Source: a virus (Duplodnaviria > Caudoviricetes). From it: a stretch of 64,000 nt of DNA. Positions 2,966-19,221 of this stretch are shown in pieces (positions within the stretch are counted from its first letter, which is position 1; every line of letters starts with the position of its first letter). The DNA lies in IMG/VR virus record IMGVR_UViG_3300016263_001265, positions 1 to 64,000 of that record; one strand, given 5' to 3'. The position numbers and the translations under genes are program-made. Below the pieces are notes generated by a model. That model did not search any database. It saw nothing but the letters and a program-made list of their open reading frames with translations, and had not been told where the DNA came from.

Positions 2966-2986
2966 GTCTGGAAAGCAAATCGGAAT

Positions 2987-3016: not shown

Positions 3017-3132
3017 ATTTTGTTCAGCCCCAAGAGACGGCGGTCTCTTGGGATAGAACCACTTGACAGGCTGCTAGGTTTGATGAGACAATCTGGTTGC
3101 CCCGACTTGGGGTGAGTAGAAAGGAGTGGCAA

Positions 3133-3945: not shown

Positions 3946-4064
3946 TCGTTATTAGGTTATAGCCCGGAGAGCTGCGGCTCTTCGGGATAGAACCACTTGA
4001 CGGGTTGCTAGGTTTCTGCTTATGATGTGGTCAGCCCGATTGGGTGAAGTAGCAAGGAGGCGGT

Positions 4065-4277
4065 ATGGGCAAGGAATACAAGGTCATAGACTTCACATTT
4101 ACGGACGGGGGGTCGGTGTGCCTTCTCACGCCAGCGACACGGGACGCTCGGCGATGGCTGGCAGAGAACATCGGCGACGGCGCGATGTATCTGGGAGACT
4201 CGCTTGCGATTGAGCGTCGCTATGTTCAGGAGATTCTTGATGGTATTCGCGGCGACGGGTACGAGGTGGCTGTGTGA
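4065..4277 (+). CDS. hypothetical protein
   Basis: SD plus promoter. Confidence 0.75.
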   Translation: MGKEYKVIDFTFTDGGSVCLLTPATRDARRWLAENIGDGAMYLGDSLAIERRYVQEILDGIRGDGYEVAV

Positions 4278-4522
4278 GCGACCACTTTGAGATTCCCGTT
4301 GGAGACCCGCAGAACATCATCTTTACCTGCGACTGCGGCAAAGATGGTGAATACTGCTCCGACAATAACGCGAGCGGACATGCCGAGTGGTATTGCGCCG
4401 ACTGCGAAAACGATCGTTCGTTCAGGTACGGCTGTGCGATGTTCGTTGCCGAGGGTTGCGGCTGCGTTCCAGGCGGCGAGGACTGCGCCTGCGGTTGTGG
4501 CGGTACGGGGGTGATCAAATGA
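4274..4522 (+). CDS. Cys-rich microprotein
   Basis: About 11 Cys; GTGA and ATGA overlaps with neighbours. Confidence 0.6.
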   Translation: MSDHFEIPVGDPQNIIFTCDCGKDGEYCSDNNASGHAEWYCADCENDRSFRYGCAMFVAEGCGCVPGGEDCACGCGGTGVIK

Positions 4523-4845
4523 GCAGAAACGACGCTGCGTTCTTTACATACGATCACGGATCTATGCTCGTATGGCAGACGGAGGACAAGATGGTTCGCG
4601 TCTACAAAAACGGAGAAATGCGTATTCACTATGGCGACCGCGTTCTGCGATACACGGAAGACTTGGACGAAAACGGGTTTGATACCGATGAGAAACTTTC
4701 GCAGGCGACCAACGACGGGCTTCTTGATTGGTGGGAGAATCCGTGGTTTGAGGTTGTGTGGTCGGACAACGAAGACGGCGAGATCTTCCACGGATACGAA
4801 GAGGCTGTTGATTACGCAAAGAGGGTTCGCTCAGGCGACCTGTAA
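4519..4845 (+). CDS. hypothetical protein
   Basis: ATGA-coupled start at 4519. Confidence 0.7.
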   Translation: MSRNDAAFFTYDHGSMLVWQTEDKMVRVYKNGEMRIHYGDRVLRYTEDLDENGFDTDEKLSQATNDGLLDWWENPWFEVVWSDNEDGEIFHGYEEAVDYAKRVRSGDL

Positions 4846-4970
4846 TCTCGCTTATTATTGTTAGACCCCAAAGGGCGGCGGCCCTTTGGGCTAGAACTTG
4901 ACACAATCTTGGCGGGTATGAGACAATCTGCCTAGCGGCACTTGCCGTTGAGTAGTAAAGGAGGACGGAA

Positions 4971-5933
4971 ATGGCACACGAAATAGAAACGATGGCATAC
5001 AACAAGGAGCGCGGTATGCCGTGGCATGGACTCGGCGTTGCGAACGCTGGTCTCACCACGAGCGCGGAGATGATCGTCGCGGCTGGTCTTGATTGGAAGG
5101 TCAAGCAGCAGCCGATCTTCACCGACTACAACGGCGCGACCATCGCGATCAACGGCAAGCGCGCAAATGTGCGCGACACCGACGGCGCGGTTCTCGGTGT
5201 GGTGGGCGACCGCTACACACCGATCCAGAACGACGAGGTGATGTCGTTTGCGGACGCGCTGCTTGACGAAGGTGCGCGCTACGAGGCGGCGGGGTCGCTG
5301 CGTGGTGGGCAGATCGTCTTCACCGCGTTGGAGATCCCAGAGAAGATCGCGATCAAGGGCGACAACGGCGGCACGACGACCTACCTCGTCGTTGCCAACG
5401 GGCACAACGGGCTGTTTCCGCTCAAAGCGATGATCACCCCGATCCGCGTTGTTTGTATGAACACGCTGAACGCTGCTCTTGGCGGCGCGAAGATGTCGTT
5501 CACGCTCCGACACACGGCTCGCCTAGACGAGAAGGTGAAGGAGGCGAAGCGCGCTCTCGGCATCGCCTCAAAGGTGGTTGATGAGTTCTCGGAAGTCGCC
5601 TCTCGCATGGTTGCCGAGAAGGTGGAGCGAGATGAAGTCTTCCGCGTGATCACCACACTCTTCCCGCTCTCCCAGAAGGAGCGCGAAGACAAGGAAGTGC
5701 TTTCGGATCGCGCAAAGGCGACTCTCGCGATTCTCAACAACGCCGAGAACCTTGATGGTCTTCGGGATACGAAGTGGGGTTTGTATAACGCCATCGCGGA
5801 GTATCTTGATCACGGCGTTTCGTATCGCGGCGGCGTGCGCTCAACGGCAAACGACGCTCGCGCTTCTAGCGTGATGTTGGATACAGGCTTCGCTGCGAAG
5901 ACGAAGCGCGAGGCGATCGCGATTCTCGCGTAG
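4971..5933 (+). CDS. DUF932/DUF945-family phage/plasmid protein
   Basis: MAH...PWHGLG N-terminus, YTPIQN, GSLRGG, RVVCMNTL, HT and KWGLYNAIAEYLDH motifs. Confidence 0.85.
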   Translation: MAHEIETMAYNKERGMPWHGLGVANAGLTTSAEMIVAAGLDWKVKQQPIFTDYNGATIAINGKRANVRDTDGAVLGVVGDRYTPIQNDEVMSFADALLDEGARYEAAGSLRGGQIVFTALEIPEKIAIKGDNGGTTTYLVVANGHNGLFPLKAMITPIRVVCMNTLNAALGGAKMSFTLRHTARLDEKVKEAKRALGIASKVVDEFSEVASRMVAEKVERDEVFRVITTLFPLSQKEREDKEVLSDRAKATLAILNNAENLDGLRDTKWGLYNAIAEYLDHGVSYRGGVRSTANDARASSVMLDTGFAAKTKREAIAILA

Positions 5934-5952
5934 TCTCTGGTATCGCGTAAAT

Positions 5953-5982
5953 AAATAAGCCGCCCTTCGGGGCGGCTTATTT
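5953..5982. terminator. intrinsic terminator, identical to the copy at 6597-6626
   Basis: aaataagccgccc-ttcg-gggcggcttattt. Confidence 0.8.
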
Positions 5983-6096
5983 ATTATGTTCGGCCCCAAG
6001 GGGCCGCCGCCCCTTGGGATAGAACGCTTGACACGCTGCCAACCGAGGTAATACAATGATGAGGCTCCGCTTGGAGTAGAGTAGCAAGGAGGCGAA

Positions 6097-6588
6097 ATGA
6101 GTTGGAAGCGGTACAAGGTTGAGGTCGTAAGGCACGAGATTGCCGAGGCAAAGCCGTTCAGGATTGAGCGACCTACGGCGGCGGTGGATTTGTTCAGAGA
6201 GGACGCGAGCCGTCTGATGACTGAATCGCTTTGGGTGATGACGCTAGACGGACGCAACGGACTGATGGGCATTGAGCAGGTCTACTCTGGGACGGCAACA
6301 GGCACGAGCGTCCGAGTCGGTGAGTTGTTTAGGTACGCAGTCTCCTCTGGTGGTTGCGCCATCGTGTTGGTTCACAACCACCCAAGCGGAGACGCAACGC
6401 CGAGCGACGAGGACATTAGGCTTACGAGCGAAGTAATCGCAGCGTCCAAACTATTGGACATTGAGGTTCTTGACCATCTCGTTCTTGGCACAGGCGGCGT
6501 GTTTACGAGCATTAGGTCGCAGCGCACAAGTCTCTGGGACAGCAACAGCATAGTTGATGTGATTGAGGCTGTCGGCGCAACAAACTGA
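6097..6588 (+). CDS. RadC-like JAB-domain protein
   Basis: HNHPSGDATPSDEDIRLT and VLDHLVLG motifs. Confidence 0.9.
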   Translation: MSWKRYKVEVVRHEIAEAKPFRIERPTAAVDLFREDASRLMTESLWVMTLDGRNGLMGIEQVYSGTATGTSVRVGELFRYAVSSGGCAIVLVHNHPSGDATPSDEDIRLTSEVIAASKLLDIEVLDHLVLGTGGVFTSIRSQRTSLWDSNSIVDVIEAVGATN

Positions 6589-6596
6589 AACGAAGT

Positions 6597-6626
6597 AAAT
6601 AAGCCGCCCTTCGGGGCGGCTTATTT
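6597..6626. terminator. intrinsic terminator
   Basis: Same sequence as 5953-5982. Confidence 0.8.
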
Positions 6627-6742
6627 ATTATGTTCGCTCGCAAAGGGCGGCGGCCCTTTGCGGTAGAACGCTTGACGAGTCTGGGGAGATGGATTTACAA
6701 TGTGGACACCCTGCTTGGGGTGCTGTGAAAAAGGAGGCGACA

Positions 6743-7006
6743 ATGGGATTCCTGCGAGCGTCAATGACGATGTGTGGCAACGGCGATTGCTACTACGACC
6801 AATGCGAGTGCGAAACGCACGACCACCCGATGGTTCAGGAGTGCGATGGCGAAACGCATTTGAGTCTTGATAAGCGTTGTCCGTTTGAGGGCAAGGACAG
6901 GCGGGTCAAGTTTGGTTGGAACGGCTATGAACTCGCCTATGACGAGGTGATTTCGCTCTGCGACGACTGCTGGGACGCTGCGATGTCCGTTGCGAGTGAA
7001 TACTAA
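6743..7006 (+). CDS. Cys-rich hypothetical protein
   Basis: AAGGAGG SD before ATG 6743. Confidence 0.7.
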   Translation: MGFLRASMTMCGNGDCYYDQCECETHDHPMVQECDGETHLSLDKRCPFEGKDRRVKFGWNGYELAYDEVISLCDDCWDAAMSVASEY

Positions 7007-7199
7007 TGGACGCGCAGGGCGCGTTCTATTTGATGTTCGGTTCGCTGCTTCTCTGGGCGTACTTCCTCACGAGGAGGTAGTCCCTATTATTATGGGGTGG
7101 CGCAAGCAGCCGCCGCTGCTTGCGATAGAACGCTTGACGAGTCGGGTATACCTGTGGGAGAATACGCTTGTCGGAGAACCGACAGAAGGAGGCAAGACA

Positions 7200-7469
7200 A
7201 TGGACGCTACACCAATCGCGTGGCAGTACGAGGCTTCTGTTCATTGCGTAAAGTGCGCCGAGGGCAAGTGGGGTGCTGCGCTAAACGACGAAGGAACACT
7301 TGATAGCGAAGGCAACAATCTTCACCCCGTCTTTGACTGGGACGATGTGAATCTGTGCGGTGAGTCTTGCGGGACTTGCCTTGACTGGGCGATTGAGCCA
7401 GTACCGCACGAGCCAGCCAGTTGTCTGCTAGGATACGACTGCCGACTGCCACAGGCGGCGGCACTATGA
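7200..7469 (+). CDS. Cys-rich hypothetical protein
   Basis: SD before ATG 7200; CxxC motifs. Confidence 0.7.
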   Translation: MDATPIAWQYEASVHCVKCAEGKWGAALNDEGTLDSEGNNLHPVFDWDDVNLCGESCGTCLDWAIEPVPHEPASCLLGYDCRLPQAAAL

Positions 7470-7660
7470 CTACGGATAGGTAGAAGAGCCTCCACCTATC
7501 CATCACGAGCGGAGCAGTTGCGTCGCAGCCAACTGCTCCGCTTCTTATTGTTCAAGCCCAAAGAGCCGCAGCTCTTTGGGATAGAACGCTTGACGGGCGG
7601 CTCACAATGGGATTACAATGGGCGCAGCCCACTTGGGCGGGTAGCAGTAAGGAGGCTCAA

Positions 7661-7999
7661 ATGTTCTGGAAGGCTCTGGCAGTTTCGCTCACGAACGGCG
7701 ACTTTATCCGCGAAGGCGACGATTGGATTGTTGACCCAAAGCACAATGCGCGCCTTGACGGATTCGCCGAAAAGTTCTCTCAAATCTACAACGACACGCT
7801 GAACGGCTGGCATCACCCAGACGATTCTCTGGAAACCGAGCAGGACGGCGTGTACGACAAGTATGGAGTCGTAATCGTACATTGGCGCAACGACGGATTC
7901 ATTGACTTCGTTGCGTTTGACTCCGAAGATGGAGCGAAGCGCGAGTGGAGCGACATCGCCGATGTGTACGACCTAATGCCAAACGGCAAGACTTTCTGA
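7661..7999 (+). CDS. hypothetical protein
   Basis: SD before ATG 7661. Confidence 0.75.
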   Translation: MFWKALAVSLTNGDFIREGDDWIVDPKHNARLDGFAEKFSQIYNDTLNGWHHPDDSLETEQDGVYDKYGVVIVHWRNDGFIDFVAFDSEDGAKREWSDIADVYDLMPNGKTF

Positions 8000-8118
8000 A
8001 CATAATAAGTTCGGCTCCAAGAGGCGGCGGCCTCTTGGACTAGAACCCTTGACGGCTGGGTTCTGGTCGTTATAGAATCGGGTAGTGCCAAATGGCACAG
8101 GCATAGAAGGAGGCAGAA

Positions 8119-8409
8119 ATGGGAAAGGCAATCAAACTCGCAGAGGCAGCGGAGATGATTCGCAACAGCAACGGCGCAATCTTCGGGGTGGACTTCGTGA
8201 AGCGCACGACGGGCGAGGTTCGCAAGATGACGGCGCGGCTCGGAGTGAAGAAGCACCTGAAAGGCGGCGAGGCGGCGTATGACGCGGCGGCGAAGAATCT
8301 CATCTTCGTCTACGACATCGCGGCGAAGGGATACCGCACCATCGCGCTTGACGCAATCAAGGCGGTGCGATTCGGCGGCGAGCAGTATGAAGTTGAGGAG
8401 GCACGATGA
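8119..8409 (+). CDS. SH3-fold DUF2693/WYL-like protein
   Basis: FGVDFVKRTTGEVRKM...VYDIAAKGYRTI pattern. Confidence 0.6.
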   Translation: MGKAIKLAEAAEMIRNSNGAIFGVDFVKRTTGEVRKMTARLGVKKHLKGGEAAYDAAAKNLIFVYDIAAKGYRTIALDAIKAVRFGGEQYEVEEAR

Positions 8410-8642
8410 ACGGCGTTGCGAGCGTTGAGCCAGCGGTCTGGTATCAAATCCACACAAACGGAGCGACGACGACCTTCGCCCGATACTATCGGCAGGACGA
8501 TGGGCTTTATCGCTTCCAGAAACTCGCAGCCGACCACACGGCGGAGCCAACAGGATTCGCGGAAATCTTTGGCGACGAAGTGATGGAATCGCTTGGCGAG
8601 GTTTCGCTTCGTATGACTCGCGCAATCGTAAGCAAAGAATAA
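8406..8642 (+). CDS. hypothetical protein
   Basis: ATGA-coupled. Confidence 0.65.
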   Translation: MNGVASVEPAVWYQIHTNGATTTFARYYRQDDGLYRFQKLAADHTAEPTGFAEIFGDEVMESLGEVSLRMTRAIVSKE

Positions 8643-8765
8643 CGCTCATTATAGTTCAGCCCCAAGTGGCCGCCGCCACTTGGGATAGAACCACTTGACG
8701 GCTGGCTGAATAGTATGCGACAATCCGATAGACGGCGACTGCCGTTGTAGTAGCAAGGAGGCAAG

Positions 8766-9071
8766 ATGGCTGCGAACTTCGCAAAGACCGAGGAGTACCT
8801 TGAAAACGCAAAGGGTATCGCGTGGGATACCTGCCACAAGATTTATGTCCTGATGGACGACGAGCAGATGGCGCAGATGAAAGAATACGGGTATGACCCG
8901 CTTATCCCTGCAAGCGAACTCACGCCGAGCGAGATGCTTCACCAAGTTCGGTATTGGTACGCACAATCCTGCGGCTTGCGGTTCGTTCAAGCGGTTTACA
9001 CAAACCACAATAATCCGAACGACGGATTCGTTGCCCTGATTGAGCAGGGAGATGATTACGAGGAGGAGTAG
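8766..9071 (+). CDS. hypothetical protein
   Basis: SD plus promoter. Confidence 0.75.
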   Translation: MAANFAKTEEYLENAKGIAWDTCHKIYVLMDDEQMAQMKEYGYDPLIPASELTPSEMLHQVRYWYAQSCGLRFVQAVYTNHNNPNDGFVALIEQGDDYEEE

Positions 9072-9195
9072 GTAGTCCTCAAATAATAAGGGCGGGGAAA
9101 CCCGCCCTTATTATTGTTATAGCCCAACAAGCGGCGGCTTGTTGGGATGGAACCAAAGATGGGGGCTTGACAAGCGGCTTGGGATGCCTGATACT

Positions 9196-9428
9196 CCCTT
9201 TGTCGGGAGCGATCCTAGGAGCAGCAAACGACAGGGTGAGACTCGTGGACGAGCGAGCAGGTCAGCCGCAGCCCTAAATGCGGGATGACGAGAGGCAAAG
9301 GACGATGACCGCTAGGTGCCAATGGATCGGCGGAGCGGTAGGAAAAGGAGCCGAGGGAAGTGATTAGCCCTCGGTGAATAATCCGAAAGAAGCCCCTTGG
9401 AGCCGACGGGTTCCGAGGGGCTTCTTAT
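9196..9428 (+). ncRNA. candidate structured sRNA 1
   Basis: Promoter at 9167 and terminator at about 9389-9428; no convincing ORF; several helices. Confidence 0.55.
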
Positions 9429-9504
9429 TAGGTTCAGCTCCAAGCAGCCGCCGCTGCTTGGAATAGAACGCTTGACTTTCGCATTTGTCCGTGGGACAAT
9501 CGTT

Positions 9505-9748
9505 CCACGAGCCGCTCTGGTGCCGCTGTGAAGGTGGCGGGCTTATGGGGCTGCGGCTGGTTGGTAGTTGCAGACAAACTACTCGCGACGATAAGGACGA
9601 GCGGGGTGGGTGAATAACCAACACCTATGCCGCTTGCAAGAGGTAGCCGAGAGGTAGAGCCTCTCTCCGCAAGGGGATAAGCGTCAAGGCGGCGATACGC
9701 CGATGAGGGTCTGGTTGGTGTGGTGCCAGCCAGACCCTCATCATTTTG
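9505..9748 (+). ncRNA. candidate structured sRNA 2
   Basis: Promoter at 9472 and terminator at about 9703-9748; no long ORF; nested helices. Confidence 0.55.
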
Positions 9749-9856
9749 TTCGTCCTCAAAGGGCGGCGGCCCTTTGAGATAGAACGCTTGACGAGTTGCC
9801 AAGTGTTCGCGTAGTATTCAGGTGCGGGGACTTCCCGCGAAGCATAGGAGGCTCAG

Positions 9857-10177
9857 ATGGCAGACGGATACAACGGCTGGACGAACTGGGAAACTTGGGT
9901 GACGAATCTCTGGATTCAGGAGGGGCTGCTTGACCTCTTTGAGGCTGGCGAGCAGGCGCGCTACTTCGCCGAGCAGGACGAGGACACAGCCGCCTACGAG
10001 ATGGGCAAGTGGATTCGCGAGCAGGTTGAGGAGATTATCGGGGAGCAGCCCGCGGGACTTGTCGCGGACTTTGTCGGCGGCGCGCTCGGCTCGGTTGATT
10101 GGACGGAAATCGGCGAACACTTCACCGACGAAGCAATCCAGAACGAGCGCGAACAAACAGAGAACGCGGACGAATAG
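9857..10177 (+). CDS. conserved phage hypothetical protein (YNGWTNWETW motif)
   Basis: Motif recurrent in phage accessory proteins; SD plus promoter. Confidence 0.75.
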   Translation: MADGYNGWTNWETWVTNLWIQEGLLDLFEAGEQARYFAEQDEDTAAYEMGKWIREQVEEIIGEQPAGLVADFVGGALGSVDWTEIGEHFTDEAIQNEREQTENADE

Positions 10178-10297
10178 CGGCATAATAAAGTAAGACTCCA
10201 AGCACCCGCCGGTGCTTGGAATGGAACCCTTGTGCGTTCGTGGAAGTTCGTGTAGTATTGCCTAGCGGCGGTTGCCGTGAGTAGTAAGGAGGCTGAG

Positions 10298-10558
10298 ATG
10301 GCAGAGTATAAGGTTCGCGGGTGCGCCGTTCTGAGCAGCGGGAAGGTCTGGTCGGATACGATTCTGGTCAAGGGCAATGTGAGCCGCGACAATGCGCTCG
10401 GCAAGGCGCGCCGTATGTTGGAACTATGGAAGGGCGCGGACAATGTTCGCCGAACCGCATTCTGGTTCGCTGATGACCCTGATAGCGTTGCCGAAGGCGA
10501 GAGCAGCGCGCGCCTTATGCTCCGCGAGGCTGAGGCAAGGGGCGAGATTACCGCCTAG
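10298..10558 (+). CDS. hypothetical protein
   Basis: SD before ATG 10298. Confidence 0.7.
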   Translation: MAEYKVRGCAVLSSGKVWSDTILVKGNVSRDNALGKARRMLELWKGADNVRRTAFWFADDPDSVAEGESSARLMLREAEARGEITA

Positions 10559-10687
10559 CCTATCGGCTGCTTCATTAGTTCGGCTTGGAGCAGCCGCGGC
10601 TGCTCCAACTAGAACCTATTGACGGAATCCAAGACATCGCATAGTATTCGTTGTGCGGGGACTTCCCGCCAATAGCAGGGGGCTCAA

Positions 10688-10921
10688 ATGGCAGGAGAAA
10701 GATACACAAACGGCATTATGGAAGGTATGCTTTCTGGGCGCGTAAACTATGCGCTTGACGCAAGCCTAGACGCAAAGGGCGAGAAGCGAGAAGCCTACCT
10801 CAAGGCGGCGCAATACGCGCAAGCCGCTCTGTTCGCCTACGAGGTAAACGGAGATTCGGATGAGGTACGCCAACTCACGACACTTTCGTTTGATTGGATG
10901 GATAAAGCAAACGAAATCTAG
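10688..10921 (+). CDS. hypothetical helical protein
   Basis: SD plus promoter. Confidence 0.7.
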   Translation: MAGERYTNGIMEGMLSGRVNYALDASLDAKGEKREAYLKAAQYAQAALFAYEVNGDSDEVRQLTTLSFDWMDKANEI

Positions 10922-11045
10922 GGCATAAATAGTTCGGCTCCTATTGGCCGCCGCCAATAGGATTAGAACGCTTGACGGCTCGCGCTGTGTTGGCGTAGTA
11001 TTCAGGGGCGGGGACTTCCCGCGAGTAGTAAAAGGGGGCAAAAAA

Positions 11046-11474
11046 ATGGGGAAGGCAATCAAGTTTGCGGTGGGGCAGTTTCTAGACGGAACGCCAACAC
11101 CCGCGCTGTTCAATTGGATTGAGATCGTGGACTTCAACGATGACGGCAACACGCTCAAAGAGCTTTACCGAGTCGGCGAGTGGTACATGACCGAGGTCGC
11201 CGCTTCTGGTAAGTACGGTGCTACGAGTGTCGTGCTCTGGTGCGATGAGGAAGGGCTTTATCATCAGCCCGTCATTCGCAATCAGGCGGCAACTTCGCTG
11301 CGAAACGAAATCCTCGGCGGTCGCTTTGACGCTCTGTTTGGGAACTGCGTACTCACCGCAGAGGACGAGGACGGCAAGACGCTTGCGCTCACCGATGAGC
11401 AGGTTTCGGAAATCAAGACGCTGCTAGAACTTGGCGGGTATCCAATCATCACGGACAACTCAACCAAGAACTAG
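11046..11474 (+). CDS. DUF3846-like protein
   Basis: LWCDEEGL...N..AT...LFGNCVLT motif. Confidence 0.7.
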   Translation: MGKAIKFAVGQFLDGTPTPALFNWIEIVDFNDDGNTLKELYRVGEWYMTEVAASGKYGATSVVLWCDEEGLYHQPVIRNQAATSLRNEILGGRFDALFGNCVLTAEDEDGKTLALTDEQVSEIKTLLELGGYPIITDNSTKN

Positions 11475-11639
11475 GCGCGAAAGAGTCATAAACAGACAAG
11501 CGGGGCGATTGCCCCGCTTGTTTGTTTGTTCAGCTCCAATCTGCCGCGGCAGATTGGAATAGAACCCCTTGACGAATCCGAATCGGCGTGCCTACAATGG
11601 GCGTAGCCCGATTGGGCTGGCTGCGAATAAAGGGGGGCT

Positions 11640-11780
11640 ATGGTGGACGAGTTTCTTGAGTGCAAGTGCGTATGCGGTTGCGAGGCATACGCGGGCGAAT
11701 ACTCCTGGTGTGTGGACTGCCTGGAAGGTACGCACCAGAACAACAACAAACTAGACGATGGCGAACTAGGCAAAGAGTAG
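11640..11780 (+). CDS. 46-aa Cys-rich microprotein (not in ORF track)
   Basis: MVDEFLECKCVCGCEAYAGEYSWCVDC...; SD upstream. Confidence 0.55.
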   Translation: MVDEFLECKCVCGCEAYAGEYSWCVDCLEGTHQNNNKLDDGELGKE

Positions 11781-11794
11781 AAGGAGATAGAGAG

Positions 11795-11998
11795 ATGTGC
11801 GATTGGTGCAACGAGGTAATCGCTCCAGACGCTCCGAGGTGGATGGACGAACACGCGGGACTCTACTACCACGACTACTGCGGCGCGGAACTCCGAGCGG
11901 AGTTGCGAGCCGAGGCAGCCGCGCTGCTAGGCGACCGCGAGGCGTACGCCTACGAGGACGATTGGGACGGCTCTCAGTTTCTCTGGGATAGGAGATAA
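11795..11998 (+). CDS. small Zn-finger-like protein
   Basis: CDWC...HDYC motif; AAGGAG SD. Confidence 0.6.
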   Translation: MCDWCNEVIAPDAPRWMDEHAGLYYHDYCGAELRAELRAEAAALLGDREAYAYEDDWDGSQFLWDRR

Positions 11999-12193
11999 CA
12001 CAAGCACCGATGGCGGCGGGGAAACCCGCCGCCATTATCGTTATGCTGCAAGCGTCCGCCGACGCTTGCAATCGAACGTTAGTTATGTTGTTAGTTAGAT
12101 CAGGGAGTTGCGAGATCGAACTAGATTCGATGGAGAGATGAGATTGAACCACCCCGCCCGCCGCGCGTCCGCGGCGAGCGGGGTGTTCGTCTA

Positions 12194-12439
12194 CTAGATT
12201 TCGTTTACTTCGAGGTCGTCCATCCTCGGGAATTTGTCGTACGCTTCATTGTACGCTTCCTCCCACGCTTTCTCGGCGCAGCCATCGCAATTGAGAATCG
12301 CGTCCATGCGCTCATCCCATTGCTCTGTCGTTTCATCCTTTGGCTCTTTGTGCTCGTCGCACAGCATTGAATCGTAATCTTGGTCGACCTCAATAGTGTC
12401 CTCTATTGTCGCAACCACCTTGAACCTACGGCTCGGCAT
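12194..12439 (-). CDS. hypothetical protein, unit 1
   Basis: SD and repeat module upstream. Confidence 0.75.
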   Translation of the reverse strand: MPSRRFKVVATIEDTIEVDQDYDSMLCDEHKEPKDETTEQWDERMDAILNCDGCAEKAWEEAYNEAYDKFPRMDDLEVNEI

Positions 12440-12675
12440 TATCAGCCTCCTGTTTTACGATTCACACTATCAACGATAGTGCGTCGGCGTCCCGATGGAT
12501 AGATAGTGCCAAGAGCGATTAGTCAGTTTAGGTTCGTGCGATGCGAGCGGAGCGAGCAATTGAACGTTAGTTAGGGTTAGTTAGTTATCTTATGGGCTGC
12601 CGAGCTCGAACAAAGTGAGGGAGACGAGGGATACCACCGCCCCCCACCGCGCGTCCGCGGTGGGGGGCGGGGTGC

Positions 12676-12978
12676 CTATGCCTTCGACTGAGCCTTCTCA
12701 ATCGCCTTCATAGCAGAAGCCTGACGCTTCTGGAGTTCCTTGACGTTTGCTTCATAGTAGGCAAGAGCCTTGTTGGCAACATCAAGCGCGGCGTTCAGTT
12801 TCTTGACGACGCTCTTGCTGGGCTTCTCTGCTCTTGCGACTATCGCAATCTGCTCTTGCGTGAAGTCAACGGCGTCCATAGCCGCAGCACGCTGCTCAAT
12901 AGAGCGCGCGAGGAGTTTCGTGATGACCCCAAGCGACTCTGTTGCTGTGCGCTTCGCGCGCTTTACTTTCTCTCCCAT
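12676..12978 (-). CDS. coiled-coil hypothetical protein, unit 2
   Basis: SD and module. Confidence 0.8.
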   Translation of the reverse strand: MGEKVKRAKRTATESLGVITKLLARSIEQRAAAMDAVDFTQEQIAIVARAEKPSKSVVKKLNAALDVANKALAYYEANVKELQKRQASAMKAIEKAQSKA

Positions 12979-13206
12979 AAAGCCTCCTGTGCTATGACTT
13001 GATTATGCGGCGCGTCCGCCGCTACAAGAAGAATACGCGGTTTGTAAAGTTTAGTCAGGTTAGGTCGTAAGCCGCGGAGCGGCGAGTCGAACCTGGTTAT
13101 GTAGTTAGTTAGTTATCTTATGGAGTTGCGAGATCGAACAAAGTGAGATAGAGACGAGAGACCTAACCACCCGAGCCGCAGGACCTCGCGGCTCGGGTGG
13201 GTTGGA

Positions 13207-13473
13207 CTATCGGTTCGTGGAAGCTTCAACCGTGAATCCGTCAATCGCTCGGCGCAAGTACGATTGATGGCGTGATGTCGTCACGCTGTAGCGCTGATTG
13301 TTTAGATTCCAATGCGTGCCGTCAGTCTGACCAATCCACTGATTGTACGAATACACCACATAGATTTCTCCCTGCCACTCGCCACGCATACTCCCTGTGT
13401 GCGAAGAGAAATCATCTAGGCGCGAAATCGCCGCGATGACCTCTTTACGATTTAGCCGCTTACGCTTTCCCAT
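13207..13473 (-). CDS. conserved phage hypothetical protein (YSVTTSRHQS motif), unit 3
   Basis: Motif; SD before ATG 13473. Confidence 0.75.
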   Translation of the reverse strand: MGKRKRLNRKEVIAAISRLDDFSSHTGSMRGEWQGEIYVVYSYNQWIGQTDGTHWNLNNQRYSVTTSRHQSYLRRAIDGFTVEASTNR

Positions 13474-13695
13474 TACTTTCCCTCCTACTACTAGCGCGGG
13501 AAGTCCCCGCTCATCCATAATCGCGGTATCGCTTAGATAGTTTAGGTTCAGTCGTAGCGAGCGGAGCGAGCCGTGGAACGTTATGGTTATCCAGTTAGTT
13601 ATCTTAGGGATCTGCGGGATAGAACGAAGTTCTATAGAGAGGAGGAATCTACCAACCCCCCACCGCAGCGCGTCCGCTGCGATGAGGGGTTGGAT

Positions 13696-13944
13696 TTACT
13701 GAGCGATTGCTTCCCGCTCTGCCGTGAGTTGGTCCCACGCTTCCAAGAGAGCGTCCTTCGCTTTCATGTGAGCGGTGTACTCCTGGTCCCAATGGTCCAG
13801 AAGCGTATCGTACATCTTGTCATCGCCACACTTGATTTCTCTGCCGTTCAGTTTCTTCCAATGATTCTCATAAGAAGAAAGATTGGCGTATGCCGCCCTC
13901 TCCGAGAGAAAAGTAAGTGCGAACATTTTATAGAACTCGTCCAT
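13696..13944 (-). CDS. helical hypothetical protein, unit 4; paralog of 15140-15397
   Basis: Shared pattern MDxxYxxFALxxLxERxA...Y.xLxDxWD. Confidence 0.8.
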   Translation of the reverse strand: MDEFYKMFALTFLSERAAYANLSSYENHWKKLNGREIKCGDDKMYDTLLDHWDQEYTAHMKAKDALLEAWDQLTAEREAIAQ

Positions 13945-14196
13945 ACTGCCCCCTGTACTAAACGATTCACGCCATCAACGATAGCGTGTCGGCGTCCCGA
14001 TACAAGAAGAATAGGTGGCTCGAAGAGTTTAGTCAGGTTGCCGCGTTAGGCGCGGAGCGCCGAGTCGAACTTAGTTAGTGGTTATTATTAAGTTAGTTAT
14101 CCTGCGAAGTTTCGGGATAGAACGAAGTTCTATAGAGAGCATCGAACTAACCACCACCGCCAACCGCGCGTCCGCGGCTGACGGTGGTGGGGATTC

Positions 14197-14418
14197 TCAG
14201 TATCCTCGGCGCGTCCGAATCTTTTCCTTTACATGCTCAACGACGCGGTCCTCTTCACTATTCCAGAAACAATCCGCGCAGATTGCCTCGGGAAGTATGG
14301 TGTCGTAACCATAGTAGTCTTCCCAGGAATCTTGGATTTCATCCTCGCTTCCAGTGGCATCACACCAACTGCAAGTGAGGACTTTCTCCTCTTGCTCTAT
14401 CTTTTCCTCTAAGGTCAC
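14197..14418 (-). CDS. CxxC-CxxC microprotein, unit 5
   Basis: CSWC and CADC. Confidence 0.7.
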   Translation of the reverse strand: MTLEEKIEQEEKVLTCSWCDATGSEDEIQDSWEDYYGYDTILPEAICADCFWNSEEDRVVEHVKEKIRTRRGY

Positions 14419-14655
14419 TTTACACCCCCAGAACTAAACGATTCACGCAACCAACGGTAGCGCGTCGGCGTCCCGATGAATAAAGAATAGGCATTCTGAG
14501 AAGTTTAGTCAGGTTCATTCGATAGCCGCGGAGCGGCGAGTCGAACTTAGTTAGGCAGTTAGTTATCTTATGGGACTGCGAGCTCGAACGTAGTTCGAGA
14601 GAGAAGAGCGATCGACCACCCCCCGCCGCGCGTCCGCGACGAGGGGTGAGTCGAA

Positions 14656-14907
14656 TCAGATCGGAAGATCCATCAAGATCCTTGTGCGCTGATCGTCGGT
14701 GAGCATTCTCCAGATGTCAAGTTCCTTCATCTTGTCGTGAAGGTTCATGCGATCGCCGTACACGCCACCGAGCATGCCAACGATACACTCTGGATTGTCT
14801 TCATCCGTGATCTCCGTCAGGAAGTATTCTGGAATACCCTGATCGAATCCGTAGATGAACTTTCGCTCTTCGCCCTTGACGATTGCTTTAAGTCTGTACT
14901 GGCTCAT
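14656..14907 (-). CDS. hypothetical protein, unit 6
   Basis: SD and module. Confidence 0.75.
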   Translation of the reverse strand: MSQYRLKAIVKGEERKFIYGFDQGIPEYFLTEITDEDNPECIVGMLGGVYGDRMNLHDKMKELDIWRMLTDDQRTRILMDLPI

Positions 14908-15139
14908 ACCTACCTCCTATAACTACTACTACAACTATACGGCGCGTCCGCCGTGCTAATACGATCCCAGATTCGCTGGGTCAGTTTAGGGTCGTGCGTT
15001 GGACGCGGAGCGGCCTGTCGAACTTAGGTTAGGGTTAGTTAGTTATATTGTGGAGTTGCGGGATAGAACGAAGTTCTATAGAGAGCAGAGATCTACCAAC
15101 CCCCCACCGCAGCGCGTCCGCTGCGATGGGGGGTTGGAT

Positions 15140-15397
15140 TTACTGAGCGGAGAGAACCGTGAAGGTTCCCTCTGCTTTCATCTTTCGATATTCCTTGGTG
15201 AGGACTTTCTCTACGTCCTTGAGTTCAGTGTGCGCCGCGTCCCACTCGTCGACGAGTGAAGCGTATACGGCGTCCGTAGCGTACCGTGGCTCTGGCTTGC
15301 CCTGCGCAGCAGCGATTGTTTCCCACTGCTGAACATTGCGCCACGCTTCTCGCTCCGCAAGCCACGCAAGAGCGAATAGTCTGTACAAACTATCCAT
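15140..15397 (-). CDS. helical hypothetical protein, unit 7
   Basis: Paralog of unit 4. Confidence 0.8.
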   Translation of the reverse strand: MDSLYRLFALAWLAEREAWRNVQQWETIAAAQGKPEPRYATDAVYASLVDEWDAAHTELKDVEKVLTKEYRKMKAEGTFTVLSAQ

Positions 15398-15630
15398 ACT
15401 GCCTCCTGTTATCTTGACTCACGCTATCAACGATAGCGTGTCGGCGTCCCGATGAATACAGAGTAGGGAGTACGAGAGGTTTAGTAAGGTTACTGCGTAA
15501 GGCGCGGAGCGCCGAGTCGAACTTAGTTATCCAGTTAGTTATATTAGGGGCTGCCGAGATCGAACAAAGTTCGATAGAGAGAGACGACCTAACTCCCCCA
15601 GCCGCGCGTCCGCGACTGGGGGAGTAGGCT

Positions 15631-15933
15631 TCAGATTGACCAGCCGTCAGCGGGCATCTCTTCGATGATCCACTGATCGGCTTCGTTGCGCTCACGCACG
15701 CGATAGCCGATTGGCTTCAACGCATCGTTCAGCGTTGTGCGCATTCCGTCACTAGCGAACTCGTCAAGGTATCCCCTAGGGTTTGCCTTGCGGCGATAAT
15801 CCAACGCCTTGACGATTCTATCCGATACCCTATCGGTAATCTCGTTCAGCGCGGCATCATTCTCCGCCCCCGTCTTCCTATCATCGTGGCGGTATACAAC
15901 CAACCACTCGATAGGATTGTAGTGCTTACTCAT
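15631..15933 (-). CDS. hypothetical protein, unit 8
   Basis: SD and module. Confidence 0.75.
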   Translation of the reverse strand: MSKHYNPIEWLVVYRHDDRKTGAENDAALNEITDRVSDRIVKALDYRRKANPRGYLDEFASDGMRTTLNDALKPIGYRVRERNEADQWIIEEMPADGWSI

Positions 15934-16208
15934 AACTACCTCCTATAACTACTACTACTATTGCGCGGTGCGTCCACCGCCTATCCATAATCAGGGATAG
16001 GATAGTTCATTCATTGTGGTGGCGATAGGCGCGGAGCGCCGTCTAGAACGTTAGTTAGGGTTAGTTAGTTATCTTATGGAGTTGCGAGATCGAACAAAGT
16101 TCGATAGAGATCAACGCACTAACCCACCCCCCACTCGCCGCTTGCTGCGAGTGGGGGGTGGAGCGAGCGCCCTAGCAGTGAGCGCTCGCTGTGTTGCTCC
16201 CGAGTGTG

Positions 16209-16454
16209 CTAATCGGCGTTCGCCATAGCACGATTCAGATCAGCCTGAGCACGCTCAAACTCATCCTCACGATGCCATAGCACCCGATTCGCTGTCTGCA
16301 CATCGCGGTGCGAGAGCGGCGAGTTCCCCAGGTATGGGGCTCGCTGCTGTGCAACGCGGTGCTTCGCAGCGACAAAATCACACTGCGCAGCAATCAAGCG
16401 ACCGAGAGTTTCGTCTCGGCGCTTTTTTGCTGCCGCCAGATTCCTGTCGGACAT
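16209..16454 (-). CDS. hypothetical protein, unit 9
   Basis: SD before ATG 16454. Confidence 0.65.
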   Translation of the reverse strand: MSDRNLAAAKKRRDETLGRLIAAQCDFVAAKHRVAQQRAPYLGNSPLSHRDVQTANRVLWHREDEFERAQADLNRAMANAD

Positions 16455-16698
16455 AAGCACCTACCTTTCTGTCGCCACGCCTGCTATTGCGTTGCCTCGG
16501 CGACAAGAAAAGAATACGAAGACTCGCAGGGTAGTTTAGGTTGCTGCGATGGGCGCGGAGCGGCCAATCGAACGTTAGTTAGGGAGTTAGTTATATTACG
16601 GGCTGCCGAGATCGAACTCATCCGTATGGAGAGAAGGGATCGACCTACCCCCCACCGCGTTTCCGCGATGGGGGGTAGTGGAAGCGATTGGCTACTGG

Positions 16699-16956
16699 CT
16701 AGACCTTGTGCTCGTCCATCTCCGAGTCTAGGAATTTGTATTCCTTGATCTCCGTGTCGTTTGCCGGTTCGGCATTGTCGACCGTCGCATCTCCCTCGTT
16801 GGCGTAATCCGTCGCCCAACCATTAGCAACAAGATTCTCAGCAATCTCTTTTGCTTGCTCGAGATTCTTTGCCATGATCGGTAGCGGGTACTCTACAAGG
16901 ACCGATACCGTCACCATGAACGGCATCATCTCCGGTTGCTTCTTTTTCTTTCCCAT
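16699..16956 (-). CDS. DpnD/PcfM-like protein, unit 10
   Basis: PIMAKNLEQAKEIA pattern. Confidence 0.7.
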   Translation of the reverse strand: MGKKKKQPEMMPFMVTVSVLVEYPLPIMAKNLEQAKEIAENLVANGWATDYANEGDATVDNAEPANDTEIKEYKFLDSEMDEHKV

Positions 16957-17201
16957 GACAGACCTCCTGCTTTACGGTACACATAGGCGGCGCTTCCAAC
17001 CGCACATCCATAATCGCGGTTGCGTGCTTATTGTTTAGGTTGTCCCGTTAGGCGCGGAGCGCCGACTCGAACTTAGTTAGTTATTGGGTTAGTTATATTA
17101 GGGACACGCGAGATCGAACGAAGTGAGAGGGGCGAGGGATCGACCACCCCGCCCACCGCGCGTTCGCGGTGAGCGGGGTGTGGTGCGTGAGCAGCTATCG
17201 A

Positions 17202-17456
17202 CTAGCCGCGGCGAAGGAACGTCGGGAAATCGAGCCAAACGCCAGCATCCTCGAGACGCTTGATAGCAGCGTCGCCGCGGACGTTGATACTCGCAGCGTC
17301 GGCGTATCCGCCGCTGTGAATGTTTAGCACGAGCTCGCCGTTTACCCGCCCGAGCTCATACGTGAGCAACGCGGGGAAACCTCCGCCATCATTGATTTCA
17401 TAGTGGAGCGACACGACGCCGTGTCGCACGTTCCACCCTGCTAGTGCTCCTACCAT
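17202..17456 (-). CDS. hypothetical protein, unit 11
   Basis: SD and module. Confidence 0.75.
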   Translation of the reverse strand: MVGALAGWNVRHGVVSLHYEINDGGGFPALLTYELGRVNGELVLNIHSGGYADAASINVRGDAAIKRLEDAGVWLDFPTFLRRG

Positions 17457-17697
17457 TACCTACCTCCTTACTACTACGGAGCGGTTGCCCCGTGAATCCA
17501 TACTGCCCTACGCGAAAGATAGTTAAAGTCATACCGATAGGCGCGGAGCGCCGTCTCGAACGTTAGTCGGTTAGTTAGTTTATGGACCTGCGGCATCGAA
17601 CCTTGTTCAATAGAGAGAGACGACCTAACTCCCCTCCCCACCGCCGTGGCGGAGGGGAGGGGAGGGGAGTGGGGGTGTCGCATCCACCCCCACTCGA

Positions 17698-17922
17698 TTA
17701 AGCCTCGTCTACGCTGTTGAGGAACACTTCCACGCTGTGTGGATGCGCTTCCTCGCAAGATACTGCCTGCACGTCATTCGACTGATCATCCATATATGAT
17801 GGATGAGACTCAGCGATGCTGACGGCAAGATCCTTCGCAGCGTCTTCATCTTTCGCGATCACTGGGATTATTCCCTCGATCACGCGAGAAACGCTTACTA
17901 GGTACCTGCGCTTCCCCTGCAT
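17698..17922 (-). CDS. DpnD/PcfM-like protein, unit 12
   Basis: PVIAKDEDAAKDLA pattern. Confidence 0.7.
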   Translation of the reverse strand: MQGKRRYLVSVSRVIEGIIPVIAKDEDAAKDLAVSIAESHPSYMDDQSNDVQAVSCEEAHPHSVEVFLNSVDEA

Positions 17923-18206
17923 ACCTTCACCCCCTCTCTACTATTCCCCGGATTAACGTATCCGCCCTCCGAATGCGGACTCCGATGAATGGGCGTATCG
18001 CATTCCGCCCATAGGAGAATGATCGCACGCTCGTTGCGTCAGTTTATGTGGTGCCGATGGGCGCGGAGCGCCCCGTCGAACGTTAGTTAGTCGGTTAGTT
18101 ATATTACGGGGTCGCGGCATCGAACGGATGTGAGGGGTGGAGGAACCTAACCACCCCGCCCACCGCGCGTTCGCGGTGAGCGGGGTGTGTGTTGCGTTCA
18201 GCTCGA

Positions 18207-18491
18207 CTATCGGGTGAGTGTCGCTGCTCGTCGGTTGATCCGATTCTTGAGCGAGTCTGGCAGGAGGCCCCAGACCATATCGGTCTTGAGAATCGACACA
18301 GCCTTCACGCCGTCATAATAGGATACCGCACCATCACGATGCTCACGAAGGAACATCATCAGCAGACCACTCACGCCAACAGTGCAATGATACTCGGTCA
18401 CATCATTGCCGTTGTTGCAGCGTATCCTGACGATTTCATCAGGGAGCATATCCACCACTAGCCTACAACCATCACCGGGAACGTGCCACAT
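18207..18491 (-). CDS. hypothetical protein, unit 13
   Basis: GGAGG SD before MWHVP. Confidence 0.65.
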   Translation of the reverse strand: MWHVPGDGCRLVVDMLPDEIVRIRCNNGNDVTEYHCTVGVSGLLMMFLREHRDGAVSYYDGVKAVSILKTDMVWGLLPDSLKNRINRRAATLTR

Positions 18492-18712
18492 ACCGTTGAC
18501 CTCCATACTATTGCGGAGCGGTTGCCCCACGCAAGAAGAATACGAATACGCGCGAGATAGTTCAGGTGATAGCGATAGGCGCGGAGCGCCGTCTCGAACG
18601 TTAGTTAGTTAGTTAGTTATATTATGTGTATGTGGGATCGAACAGAGATGTAGAGGGAGAAGAGATCGACCACCCCGCCCACCGCCGAAGCGGTGAGCGG
18701 GGTGGGGACTGA

Positions 18713-18988
18713 CTAGACGGCGATGTGGCGCTTGCCGCACTCGCATCCGCCGCGGTCGTTGCGGTTGCGAAGCACCGCATCGAGAATCGGGAAGACCACG
18801 CGCTCTAGCGTTGCGCGGAATACCCGATAGACCGAATCGCCTGCGAGCAGACCGACGAGGATGTCCATAGCGTTGATCATACGGATCGAATCGCCATCGA
18901 ATCCAAGAACGCCGTGCTGCCACGCGAGAAGATTCGCCGCCACGATGACGGTGAAGATTGCCCGAAGTGCCTTGCCGATTGTGTCCAC
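18713..18988 (-). CDS. small membrane protein with C-terminal CxCxxxH, unit 14
   Basis: Two hydrophobic helices; SD. Confidence 0.7.
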   Translation of the reverse strand: MDTIGKALRAIFTVIVAANLLAWQHGVLGFDGDSIRMINAMDILVGLLAGDSVYRVFRATLERVVFPILDAVLRNRNDRGGCECGKRHIAV

Positions 18989-19221
18989 GATTGCCTCCTA
19001 TCTACTTCTCGGGGAAGTCCCCCGTACAAGAACAATACGGGGAACGCGCAGCGTGTCTTGGGTCGACCGATAGCCCCGGAGGGGCGAGTCTAACCCCTCG
19101 CGTGCGCCCTTTGGCCCCCCACCCCTACCTGCGCTAAGGGGGTCGGGGGATTTTTTATATATACGTGGAATGGGGGTTCGATAATCGCTCTCAGGGAGCC
19201 TTCCAGAAGCCCCGGAAATGC

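Follow-up and report, generated by a model that had tools for sequence, protein, structure and literature searches.

The region between about 12 and 19 kb of the caudoviricete genome IMGVR_UViG_3300016263_001265 raises the question of how 14 small and mostly unrelated genes came to lie one after another at intervals of about 500 bp, and of whether this period is itself a selected property. The window studied here is the first 64 kb of this 84,616-bp circularly assembled phage record (genome G000), and the element in question is an array of one-gene cassettes that ends near position 12,069. The answer that we favour, and consider probable, sees here a hyperplastic block of early or accessory genes, made up of 14 insulated, recombination-prone single-gene expression cassettes that reuse one composite module. 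This reading starts from direct observations, namely a common anatomy, conserved and covarying hairpins, cassettes shuffled among relatives, genes under purifying selection, and the lack of sigma-70-type promoters and of canonical U-tract terminators.

Fourteen hairpins with a GGA loop were found on the plus strand between positions 12544 and 19085, with spacings, in order, of 527, 487, 491, 476, 477, 499, 527, 524, 499, 489, 520, 518 and 495 bp (476-527 bp, mean 502.2, standard deviation (sd) 18.7), which reproduce exactly the 13 spacings between GGA cores given in a preliminary description of this DNA. The motif GCGGAGCG is present in 13 plus-strand copies (12547-18581), compared with 4.35 expected in the whole 64-kb window, and in a shuffling control 17 matches were reached in none of 100 shuffles; the 14th hairpin, at 19073 on the same strand, is a variant, GCCCC-GGA-GGGGC. 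Each interval holds one minus-strand open reading frame (ORF) of 73-100 aa preceded by a strong Shine-Dalgarno site, in such a way that the 14 ORFs make up 52.9% of the array span and 47% is non-coding. The one-ORF intervals and the nearly half non-coding content (coding fraction 0.529) had both been described before, as had the pairs of ORF and non-coding lengths (222 nt with 254 nt, 225 with 295, and 303 with 224 twice), and the picture of a repeat/spacer-like array, with single genes as spacers and modular non-coding DNA between them, holds as a description. One point is corrected: the cassette genes, and the polarity of their transcription, are on the minus strand. A CRISPR-like reading was discarded, since the "spacers" are conserved protein genes.

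Two complete relatives with arrays of the same kind, G001 (85 kb; 14 units, mean 503 bp, sd 19.5) and G002 (83 kb; 12 units, mean about 531 bp), were used for comparison. Units are numbered in gene direction, u1 having the highest coordinates and u14 the lowest, and the array converges at about 12.0-12.1 kb on an early-gene array of the plus strand. The features are as follows.

12069-19085, minus strand: whole array, 14 co-oriented monocistronic cassettes and a terminal half-module, at the end of the minus-strand gene block.
18670-19085, minus strand: u1; hairpin 19073-19085 (variant GCCCC-GGA-GGGGC, plus strand), ORF 18713-18988 (91 aa, N-terminal half hydrophobic; orthologues are the first cassette of G001 and G002), 3′ GC hairpin 18670-18705.
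18152-18590, minus strand: u2; hairpin 18578-18590, ORF 18207-18491 (94 aa; G001 orthologue third in its array), 3′ hairpin 18152-18187.
17629-18072, minus strand: u3; hairpin 18060-18072, leader of 150 nt with extra hairpins, ORF 17698-17922 (74 aa, paralogue of u5), 3′ hairpin 17629-17664.
17145-17552, minus strand: u4; hairpin 17540-17552, ORF 17202-17456 (84 aa; G001 orthologue second in its array), 3′ hairpin 17145-17180.
17064-17144, minus strand: representative inter-cassette core, between u4 and u5; CT-rich tail, GTTCGATCtCG box, TAAtATAACTAAC, (TAAC)n, and TAA-GTTCGA abutting the hairpin at 17051-17063.
16645-17063, minus strand: u5; hairpin 17051-17063, ORF 16699-16956 (85 aa), 3′ hairpin 16645-16678.
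16124-16564, minus strand: u6; hairpin 16552-16564 with one mismatch, ORF 16209-16454 (81 aa; orthologue is G002 unit 5), extra hairpin 16162-16190, 3′ GC hairpin 16124-16161.
15593-16040, minus strand: u7; hairpin 16028-16040, ORF 15631-15933 (100 aa), 3′ hairpin 15593-15624.
15096-15513, minus strand: u8; hairpin 15501-15513, ORF 15140-15397 (85 aa, paralogue of u11), 3′ hairpin 15096-15137.
14617-15014, minus strand: u9; hairpin 15002-15014 with one mismatch, ORF 14656-14907 (83 aa), 3′ hairpin 14617-14648.
14151-14537, minus strand: u10; hairpin 14525-14537, ORF 14197-14418 (73 aa, CxxC...CxxC), 3′ hairpin 14151-14190.
13652-14061, minus strand: u11; hairpin 14049-14061, ORF 13696-13944 (82 aa), 3′ hairpin 13652-13693.
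13167-13570, minus strand: u12; hairpin 13558-13570 (variant CGAGC-GGA-GCGAG, tandem G.A mismatches on the plus strand), ORF 13207-13473 (88 aa), 3′ hairpin 13167-13200.
12637-13083, minus strand: u13; hairpin 13071-13083, ORF 12676-12978 (100 aa, 92% identical to its G001 orthologue), 3′ hairpin 12637-12670.
12151-12556, minus strand: u14; hairpin 12544-12556 (variant CGAGC-GGA-GCGAG), ORF 12194-12439 (81 aa), 3′ hairpin 12151-12184.
12005-12150, minus strand: terminal half-module; CT tract, GTTCGAT box and TAAC repeats, with the GGA hairpin replaced by an 8-9-bp hairpin at 12036-12081; a bidirectional terminator at about 12005-12035 is common to this half-module and the last plus-strand gene.

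All 14 modules can be aligned end to end, and in gene direction every unit reads GGA hairpin, leader, Shine-Dalgarno site, ORF, GC hairpin, CT-rich tail, GTTCGAT box and TAAC repeats. In a consensus built from 37 modules of the three genomes, the strongest blocks are GTTCgATCtCG, TAAtATAACTAAC, TAACTAA-GTTCGA, CGCTCCGCG, AtCG and AGGAGG-ATG; TAAtATAACTAAC(TAAC)n is kept across the 37 modules, with a variable number of TAAC repeats. The 3′ GC hairpin follows the stop codon directly in 14/14 ORFs, with GC runs of 11-19 bp and energies of -31 to -59 kcal/mol. The 13-nt hairpin starts 3-4 bases past TAA-GTTCGA, and its loop is TCC, that is, GGA on the template (window plus) strand; on its 3′ side follow T-A-T/A-C, a purine, a conserved AACCT.AAAC block, a cassette-specific leader that often contains a small hairpin, AGGAGG and ATG. 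A further palindrome (GAAC-N3-GTTC, "hairpin 2") was tried as a core part of the module and set aside, as around half of the units in G000 and G001 have it and G002 lacks it altogether. Leader hairpins of the GCGGGGACTTCCCGC type followed by a Shine-Dalgarno site were seen in both arrays, at 9823-9838, 10650-10665 and 11008-11023 on the plus strand and at 13495-13510 in the u12 leader, with similar ones in the minus array at about 15975-15990 and 17000-17015, and the minus-array copies are preceded by the -10-like hexamer GATTAT; leaders seem to have been shuffled between the plus and minus arrays.

The two arrays belong to different transcription classes. The plus strand from 1 to 12050 carries a second cassette array with 18-19 near-consensus sigma-70 promoters (TTGACG-17/18-TAcAAT), each preceded by a GTTC-stem-loop-GAAC element, and with canonical T-run terminators. 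A consensus scan that recovered 18 promoter-like sites plus T-run terminator-like sites in that array detected neither sigma-70-like nor terminator-like sites on the minus strand between 12.2 and 19.1 kb. With a weight matrix trained on the phage's own 18 plus-strand promoters, true sites scored 13.5-19.5 bits and the modules 0.1-6.5 on the coding strand and -1.3 to 7.0 on the opposite one, against a background mean of 5.1. A sigma-70 promoter within the module was rejected on this basis: the -10-like hexamers TAAtAT, upstream of the hairpin, and GATTAT or TATTCT, downstream of it, score no better than background with their -35 partners. A weak promoter for the host polymerase may still be present in the module, where GATTAT with the leader hairpin resembles the leaders of the plus array.

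What, then, would drive expression of each cassette? The hairpin was surveyed in 62 units from at least eight contigs, which are G000, G001, G002, G003 and L112 (clade I) and L113, L117 and L120 (clade II/III). The TCC loop, the closing C-G pair and the C at centre+10 are present in 62/62 units, and centre+11 is a purine in 61 of them, while stem pairs 3-7 vary in compensatory fashion among GC, CG, AT and TA. No G.T wobble was found on either strand, and all mismatches are purine-purine on the plus strand; the recurrent imperfect stem has tandem G.A on that strand, which corresponds to pyrimidine-pyrimidine on the mRNA strand. The absence of wobble and the exclusively purine-purine mismatches on the plus strand favour a hairpin that would act as template-strand DNA rather than as RNA.

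These data bear on the possibility that the modules are not promoters at all, so that read-through from the upstream minus-strand operon would be cut or protected at RNA-level processing or stabilising sites, also acting as translational insulators, to give stable monocistronic mRNAs in a way comparable to the RNase III sites between T7 early genes. The position of the array, which continues a co-oriented gene block running between about 30 and 12 kb, is in line with such read-through, as are the 3′ hairpins without U tracts, the lack of a dedicated polymerase or sigma factor in profile searches, and an AT-rich tract that closes the three coding-strand frames in three unrelated module types. 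The hairpin itself speaks otherwise, with 0 G.U pairs in the 310 stem-pair cells counted, with tolerated mismatches that are pyrimidine-pyrimidine on the RNA strand and purine-purine (tandem G.A) on the template DNA, and with a loop, closing pair, -8G and +1 position that copy the N4 DNA promoter. We know of no RNA recognition or stability motif formed by a UCC triloop, and we regard RNA processing as an unlikely explanation. A primase/ssi or HUH site was also rejected: use of such mini-hairpins is known (PMC13037366), but it leaves unexplained a hairpin before every ribosome-binding site in gene orientation.

The likeness to the early promoters of phage N4 is detailed. In the N4 genome (EF056009) the template-strand hairpins of promoters P1-P3 read GTTGC-GAA-GCAAC, GAAGC-GGA-GCTTC and GCTGC-GGA-GCAGC, each with a G after a further 4 nt. 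A hairpin of the N4 kind, on the template strand, with a stem of 5-7 bp and a 3-nt purine loop centred at -11, is present in all 62 units surveyed. The promoter determinants in N4 are -11G/A, -10G, -8G, +1C, the C:G closing pair and a sheared G..A loop (PMC4496689), and they map one-to-one onto GGCGC-GGA-GCGCC plus TATC-G. The full set is present in 12 of the 14 G000 units, the exceptions named being u1, where -8 is C, and u12 and u14, with their tandem G.A stems; the clade II/III hairpins also have C at -8. Common to both systems (PMC4496689; for the N4-like phage LUZ7, PMC9163698) are thus a template-strand stem of 5 bp, the GGA loop, the C:G closing pair, -8G, four spacer bases, a start (putative here) at G 11 nt from the loop centre, the GCGGAGC core, and the location upstream of small early genes. 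GCGGAGC is known as an ultra-stable DNA mini-hairpin, also found at primase sites (PMC13037366).

The differences from N4 are equally clear. The hairpin promoters number three in N4 and nine in LUZ7, compared with 14 promoter-like hairpins here; a strong hairpin follows each promoter-like element here after about 400 nt; a conserved GTTCGA box and TAAC repeats lie upstream; and genes for the N4 virion RNA polymerase (vRNAP), N4 RNAPII or a T7-like RNA polymerase are undetectable. N4-type promoters are located at the end of the genome that enters the cell first, and their activity requires gyrase and SSB; this array, which comes from circular assemblies (end overlaps of 22-123 bp), is not known to lie at a genome end. 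Tailed phages usually have their packaging site close to the terminase genes, and should that hold here, the distance from the site to the array would be about 25 kb. Because no such polymerase was detected, the array is not placed in the N4 family. Judged from the sequence comparison, the chances that the GGA hairpin is a promoter are about even, and so are those that "N4-type promoter" holds as a functional analogy rather than as family membership.

Under the cassette reading that we favour, the GC-rich 3′ stem-loop with its CT-rich tail would be the putative transcript end or terminator, termination being an assumption since these hairpins lack a U tract. The GTTCGAT box, the AT-rich TAAC tract and the second GTTCGA box would then precede the 13-nt hairpin nnnGC-GGA-GCnnn on the template strand, which might be read as extruded DNA, in the N4 fashion, by a polymerase or specificity factor, with the purine at centre+11, after the invariant C at centre+10, as candidate transcription start. 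Homologous recombination between the near-identical repeats of about 130 bp would swap, duplicate, delete or replace cassettes; because every gene sits between two such repeats, this could happen among relatives without disturbing the neighbours, much as has been demonstrated for cassettes of the PeSL type in T4-type phages, which are described below.

The relatives show the outcome expected from such exchange. G000 and G001 have 11 families in common, but some neighbouring cassettes have changed places, others have been replaced, and paralogues have been added. The conserved cassettes are the first and last ones, the first being kept in all three arrays and distal ones in pairs of arrays; the changes are scattered, so that gain shows no polarity. 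Homology blocks stop 12-34 nt past the next hairpin, and the modules are 65-81% identical between relatives while the ORFs diverge. Stem variants and the +1 base are array-specific, as fits homogenisation by recombination. The relatives thus show gain, loss, swap and duplication of cassettes with breakpoints in the modules. The causes proposed in the preliminary description, size-selective acquisition or a physical ruler, are not supported; neither an integrase or other site-specific recombinase nor a polarity of gain was found.

Array fragments in G003 and L112 have spacings of 475-573 bp. The clade II/III contigs, located through a neighbouring 275-aa gene, have modules with a GTTC box, an AT-rich tract and a TCC-loop hairpin with a 6-bp stem, and their units measure 504-620 bp with one ORF, 894-1078 bp with two and 1416 bp with three. 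In G004 and G005, whose terminase is around 70% identical, another module is found, with ATGATGA repeats, GGGGTAAGGGG repeats and canonical terminators, in units of 590-1000 bp. Conservation of the ~500-bp period, which had been proposed as a check, is thus restricted to the closest clade, given the 894-1416 bp of clade II/III and the 590-1000 bp of G004 and G005. The array with the other module lies at 5900-11500 of L102 (G005) and at 72100-77700 of G004, where the GGGGTAAGGGG(T) repeats are G-quadruplex-like and the ORFs are of around 150 aa. At the distal end of the clade II array, L120 16700-17460, units of 285-380 bp have a GC hairpin followed by TTGGAGGTTCACGATG and no GGA hairpin. The AT-rich tract of three unrelated module types stops all three coding-strand frames, as TAACTAACTAA, as TAAGTAAC...TAAGTAATAAG and as ATGATGAATGA, at window positions 12575-12600 and 13100-13125 and the equivalent site of every module, at L120 13515-13545 and at L102 5950-5985; it may be a translational insulator or a mere consequence of AT richness.

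One-gene cassettes split by conserved structured repeats, with a DNA hairpin that is strand-specific, also recall integrons, in which the hairpins would be recombination sites akin to the attC bottom-strand hairpins and the cassettes would be captured by site-specific recombination; a GTTAGGT-like motif even follows some of the 3′ hairpins. The module, however, consists of three separate short hairpins plus direct boxes and not of one long imperfect attC palindrome, the cassettes hold their own expression signals, and gain lacks polarity. At E<=1 the tyrosine recombinase profile PF00589 matched nothing anywhere in the genome, while it did match the control genomes. With neither an integrase nor an attC site, the array is not an integron, and capture of this kind appears very improbable.

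The ORFs are real genes, since orthologues show dN/dS values of 0.13-0.61, indicative of purifying selection, and they diverge fast (29-92% aa identity, pS 0.25-0.81, synonymous sites often saturated). The 40 cassettes of the three genomes fall into around 20 families by BLASTP; profile-profile comparison linked 2 of the 210 family pairs, and no out-of-frame homology was detected between cassette families, in agreement with the earlier statement that the ORFs are mostly unrelated. An origin of the unrelated ORFs by frameshift or overprinting was discarded for the same lack of out-of-frame homology. Paralogue pairs within arrays are u3/u5 and u8/u11, and units 8/11 and 10/12 of G002. In searches of PHROGs a function could be named for 0 of 20 cassette proteins, save for one weak unsupported match: u5 (16699-16956, minus strand) as an RNA polymerase inhibitor was rejected, as it rests on phrog_1307 only (E=6e-4, over 37 aa) and the family profile is matchless in the PDB.

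Is the period then selected? The ~500 bp are, in our view, mainly arithmetic, the sum of a module of around 240 nt and an ORF class of 67-114 aa. An explanation by microprotein size plus a fixed module, which the preliminary description had named as a finding that would refute its own reading, accounts for most of the period and leaves over the uniformity of ORF size and a partial length compensation. In G000 the ORFs have an sd of 25 nt and the non-coding parts of 23 nt, and the units vary by 18.7 vs about 34.2 expected if both were independent (permutation P=0.002 for so small a unit sd); ORF and non-coding lengths are anticorrelated (Pearson -0.70; Spearman -0.82, p=0.0006), and the Spearman value holds without the extreme units. 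The anticorrelation is weaker in the relatives (r=-0.39 in G001, -0.59 in G002), is r=-0.52 (p about 0.02) when each family is represented once, and falls to r=-0.37 (p about 0.11) in a stop-codon-based split that is immune to miscalled starts; among orthologue pairs no systematic length compensation was found. The anticorrelation suggested earlier is real in G000, and is weaker in the relatives and at p about 0.11 with the stop-codon-based split. Units in the plus array of the same genome range from 305 to 1211 bp.

Selection on unit length itself, as a true ruler or a minimum spacing with short ORFs padded by extra non-coding hairpins, would explain the small unit sd (18.7 vs 34.2 bp, P=0.002) and the rho of -0.82, and the sign of the correlation is the same in G001, in G002 and in the one-per-family set. 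The short-ORF units u3 and u6 do hold additional hairpins, and ORF size is uniform despite unrelated families. Each extruding hairpin promoter might need its own negatively supercoiled stretch; by our own estimate, a 13-bp extrusion absorbs around 1.2 of the approximately 2.9 superhelical turns available per 500 bp at sigma -0.06. N4 hairpins extrude at physiological supercoiling (PMC4496689), and the distance between N4 P1 and P2 is 469 bp. Recombination or looping between neighbouring modules might, in another variant that we infer, be most efficient near 500 bp. Against this, clade II/III combines the same hairpin type with units of 894-1416 bp, and these two- and three-gene units argue against a universal ruler; L120 units of the other type measure 285-380 bp, LUZ7 has strong hairpin promoters 33 nt apart (PMC9163698), orthologue pairs lack consistent compensation and the stop-codon-based split remains at p about 0.11. 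A unit sd of 19 bp is also about two helical turns, so that there is no phasing. We hold a length constraint to be possible and doubtful. Still less probable is its combination with a dedicated, actively maintained cassette platform outside the N4 family (Schitoviridae), in which GGA mini-hairpins would be read by a polymerase or factor without N4/T7 homology, and the physics of extrusion or recombination would set the ~500 bp, with short genes padded.

The period could also be inherited, if one unit of around 500 bp was duplicated in tandem and its coding parts diverged, with drift of starts and stops within a fixed frame yielding the anticorrelation. The modules are clearly homologous copies, the cassette proteins evolve fast, and the paralogue pairs of G000 (u3/u5, u8/u11) and G002 (8/11, 10/12) would be remnants of the expected kind. 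Profile-profile similarity is lacking, however, for 208 of the 210 family pairs, the families share no homology at the DNA level or out of frame, what u3 and u6 have in extra non-coding DNA is made up of added hairpins and not of decayed coding sequence, and the leaders common with the plus array point to imported foreign cassettes. Duplication as the source of the period seems improbable to us.

Several results weigh against the insulated, recombining cassettes of our preferred reading, and they concern expression, exchange and period alike. The tails of the 3′ hairpins are CU-rich and contain no U tract. Six-frame searches of G000-G002 with the profiles of N4 vRNAP (phrog_2206), T7-like RNA polymerase (phrog_414) and N4 RNAPII (phrog_2051) yielded nothing at E<=10, nor did PF00940 or Sigma70_r2 find a match at E<=1 in G000. 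A giant protein of 3474 aa was considered as an N4-like vRNAP and rejected, as TMP_3 is its sole match and a search of the PDB gave none; G004 and G005, which have no GGA hairpins, share its conserved core, and G002, which has them, does not conserve its N-terminal 1000 aa, so that its parts do not track hairpin presence and it is not a hidden polymerase for the hairpins. The ORFs common to G000-G002 yet absent from G004 and G005 are too many to single out a hairpin reader. As to exchange, metagenome contigs break at modules, with junctions that skip or return by multiples of around 510 bp (including 514/520), and these were not used as evidence of circles or rearrangement, because their sides of 32-39 nt lie inside repeats and are ambiguous; shuffling by recombination between modules is thus a mechanism read from genome comparison. 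As to the period, the size of the cassette ORFs, which represent about 19 unrelated families (sd 8.2 aa), is more uniform than that of plus-array genes below 150 aa (24.4; Levene p=0.03) or of N4 gp1-gp14 (34.5; p=0.0006), and the length compensation is left over when the period is taken as a by-product.

The genome that carries the array encodes a portal, a protease-scaffold, a capsid protein and a terminase, a 2218-aa fibre gene placed after the tape measure gene, lambdoid-type replication and recombination genes (DnaC-like, RusA, PD-(D/E)XK nuclease) and MazG. A megablast search of the array against 50,697 phage records gave no match, and neither did tblastn of the major capsid protein against the phage collection, in which the best terminase match was 27% identical; no cultured relative can be named from these searches. 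The phage occurs in freshwater metagenomes. Genes outside the minus array that could be assigned are these.

1381-2220, plus strand: DUF1281_C, gene of the plus array.
4971-5933, plus strand: DUF932, gene of the plus array.
6097-6588, plus strand: RadC/JAB, gene of the plus array.
10944-11474, plus strand: DUF3846, gene of the plus array.
45879-56303, minus strand: 3474-aa tape-measure-like protein, TMP_3 domain at residues 1731-1868.

The gene set of the plus array (DUF1281_C, DUF932, RadC, DUF3846) is one that we take to be typical of anti-restriction and plasmid leading regions. A tape measure usually spans about 0.15 nm per residue, and 3474 aa would imply a tail of around 0.5 micrometre; the N-terminal ~1000 aa of this protein are very basic, and this part is only 50% identical in G001 and has no G002 homologue. 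Within the prohead protease ORF (31335-33395, plus strand), aa 296-435 match phrog_3636, annotated as "DNA binding protein" (E=2e-25).

Among known architectures the nearest is that of the promoter-early stem-loop (PeSL) cassettes of T4-type phages (Arbiol, Comeau, Krisch et al. 2010, PMC2839356; 2014, PMC4122927), where a G/C stem-loop, an AT-rich tract and an early promoter flank ORFans and mediate their insertion, deletion and replacement, with mini-circles of 400-1400 bp (PMC2839356). Here too a composite intergenic repeat joins a G/C-rich stem-loop (a putative terminator), an AT-rich tract and an element in promoter position, the repeats flank small ORFans in a hyperplastic region, cassettes have been inserted, deleted or replaced at the repeats between close relatives, and each cassette would be transcriptionally insulated. 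The promoter part, in contrast, is an N4-type GGA hairpin and not sigma-70-like, the units are 14, consecutive and single-gene, with a length spread of around 4%, and the host phage is an unrelated siphovirus-like freshwater phage; lacking the sigma-70 promoter that defines PeSLs, the array is not counted among them.

Integron arrays resemble it in their mostly single small genes, in the conserved structured repeats between them and in a content that varies among relatives, and differ in having an IntI integrase, attC architecture and a common Pc promoter, in place of the separate expression signals that each cassette has here. Dense early-gene clusters such as the host-takeover module of Bacillus phage SPO1 likewise pack many small early genes into short operons, and strong promoters, ribosome-binding sites and terminators recur in them; unlike the array described here, clusters of the SPO1 type have host sigma-A promoters, variable unit sizes and no N4-type hairpins. 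In halovirus HF2, intergenic repeats supply promoters to many genes as well, and that virus is archaeal, with short AT-rich repeats (PMC8707807), and is not known to have a terminator-plus-hairpin module or a periodic array.

With 14 unrelated small genes on one chassis, the array is one of the cleanest natural plug-and-play gene organisations in a virus, and in its relatives the putative expression chassis serves as a scaffold on which cassettes are shuffled. With it the PeSL idea reaches beyond T4-type myoviruses, into a freshwater lineage that is unrelated to them and uncultivated. The bases recognised by N4 vRNAP, found here without a recognisable single-subunit polymerase or sigma factor, point either to a new hairpin reader or to a second use of the DNA mini-hairpin, and the module, with its putative terminator, insulator, promoter and leader, could serve as a compact part for synthetic biology. 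Because ORFans under purifying selection adjoin here a gene array of anti-restriction type, the cassettes are candidates for host-takeover or anti-defence functions.

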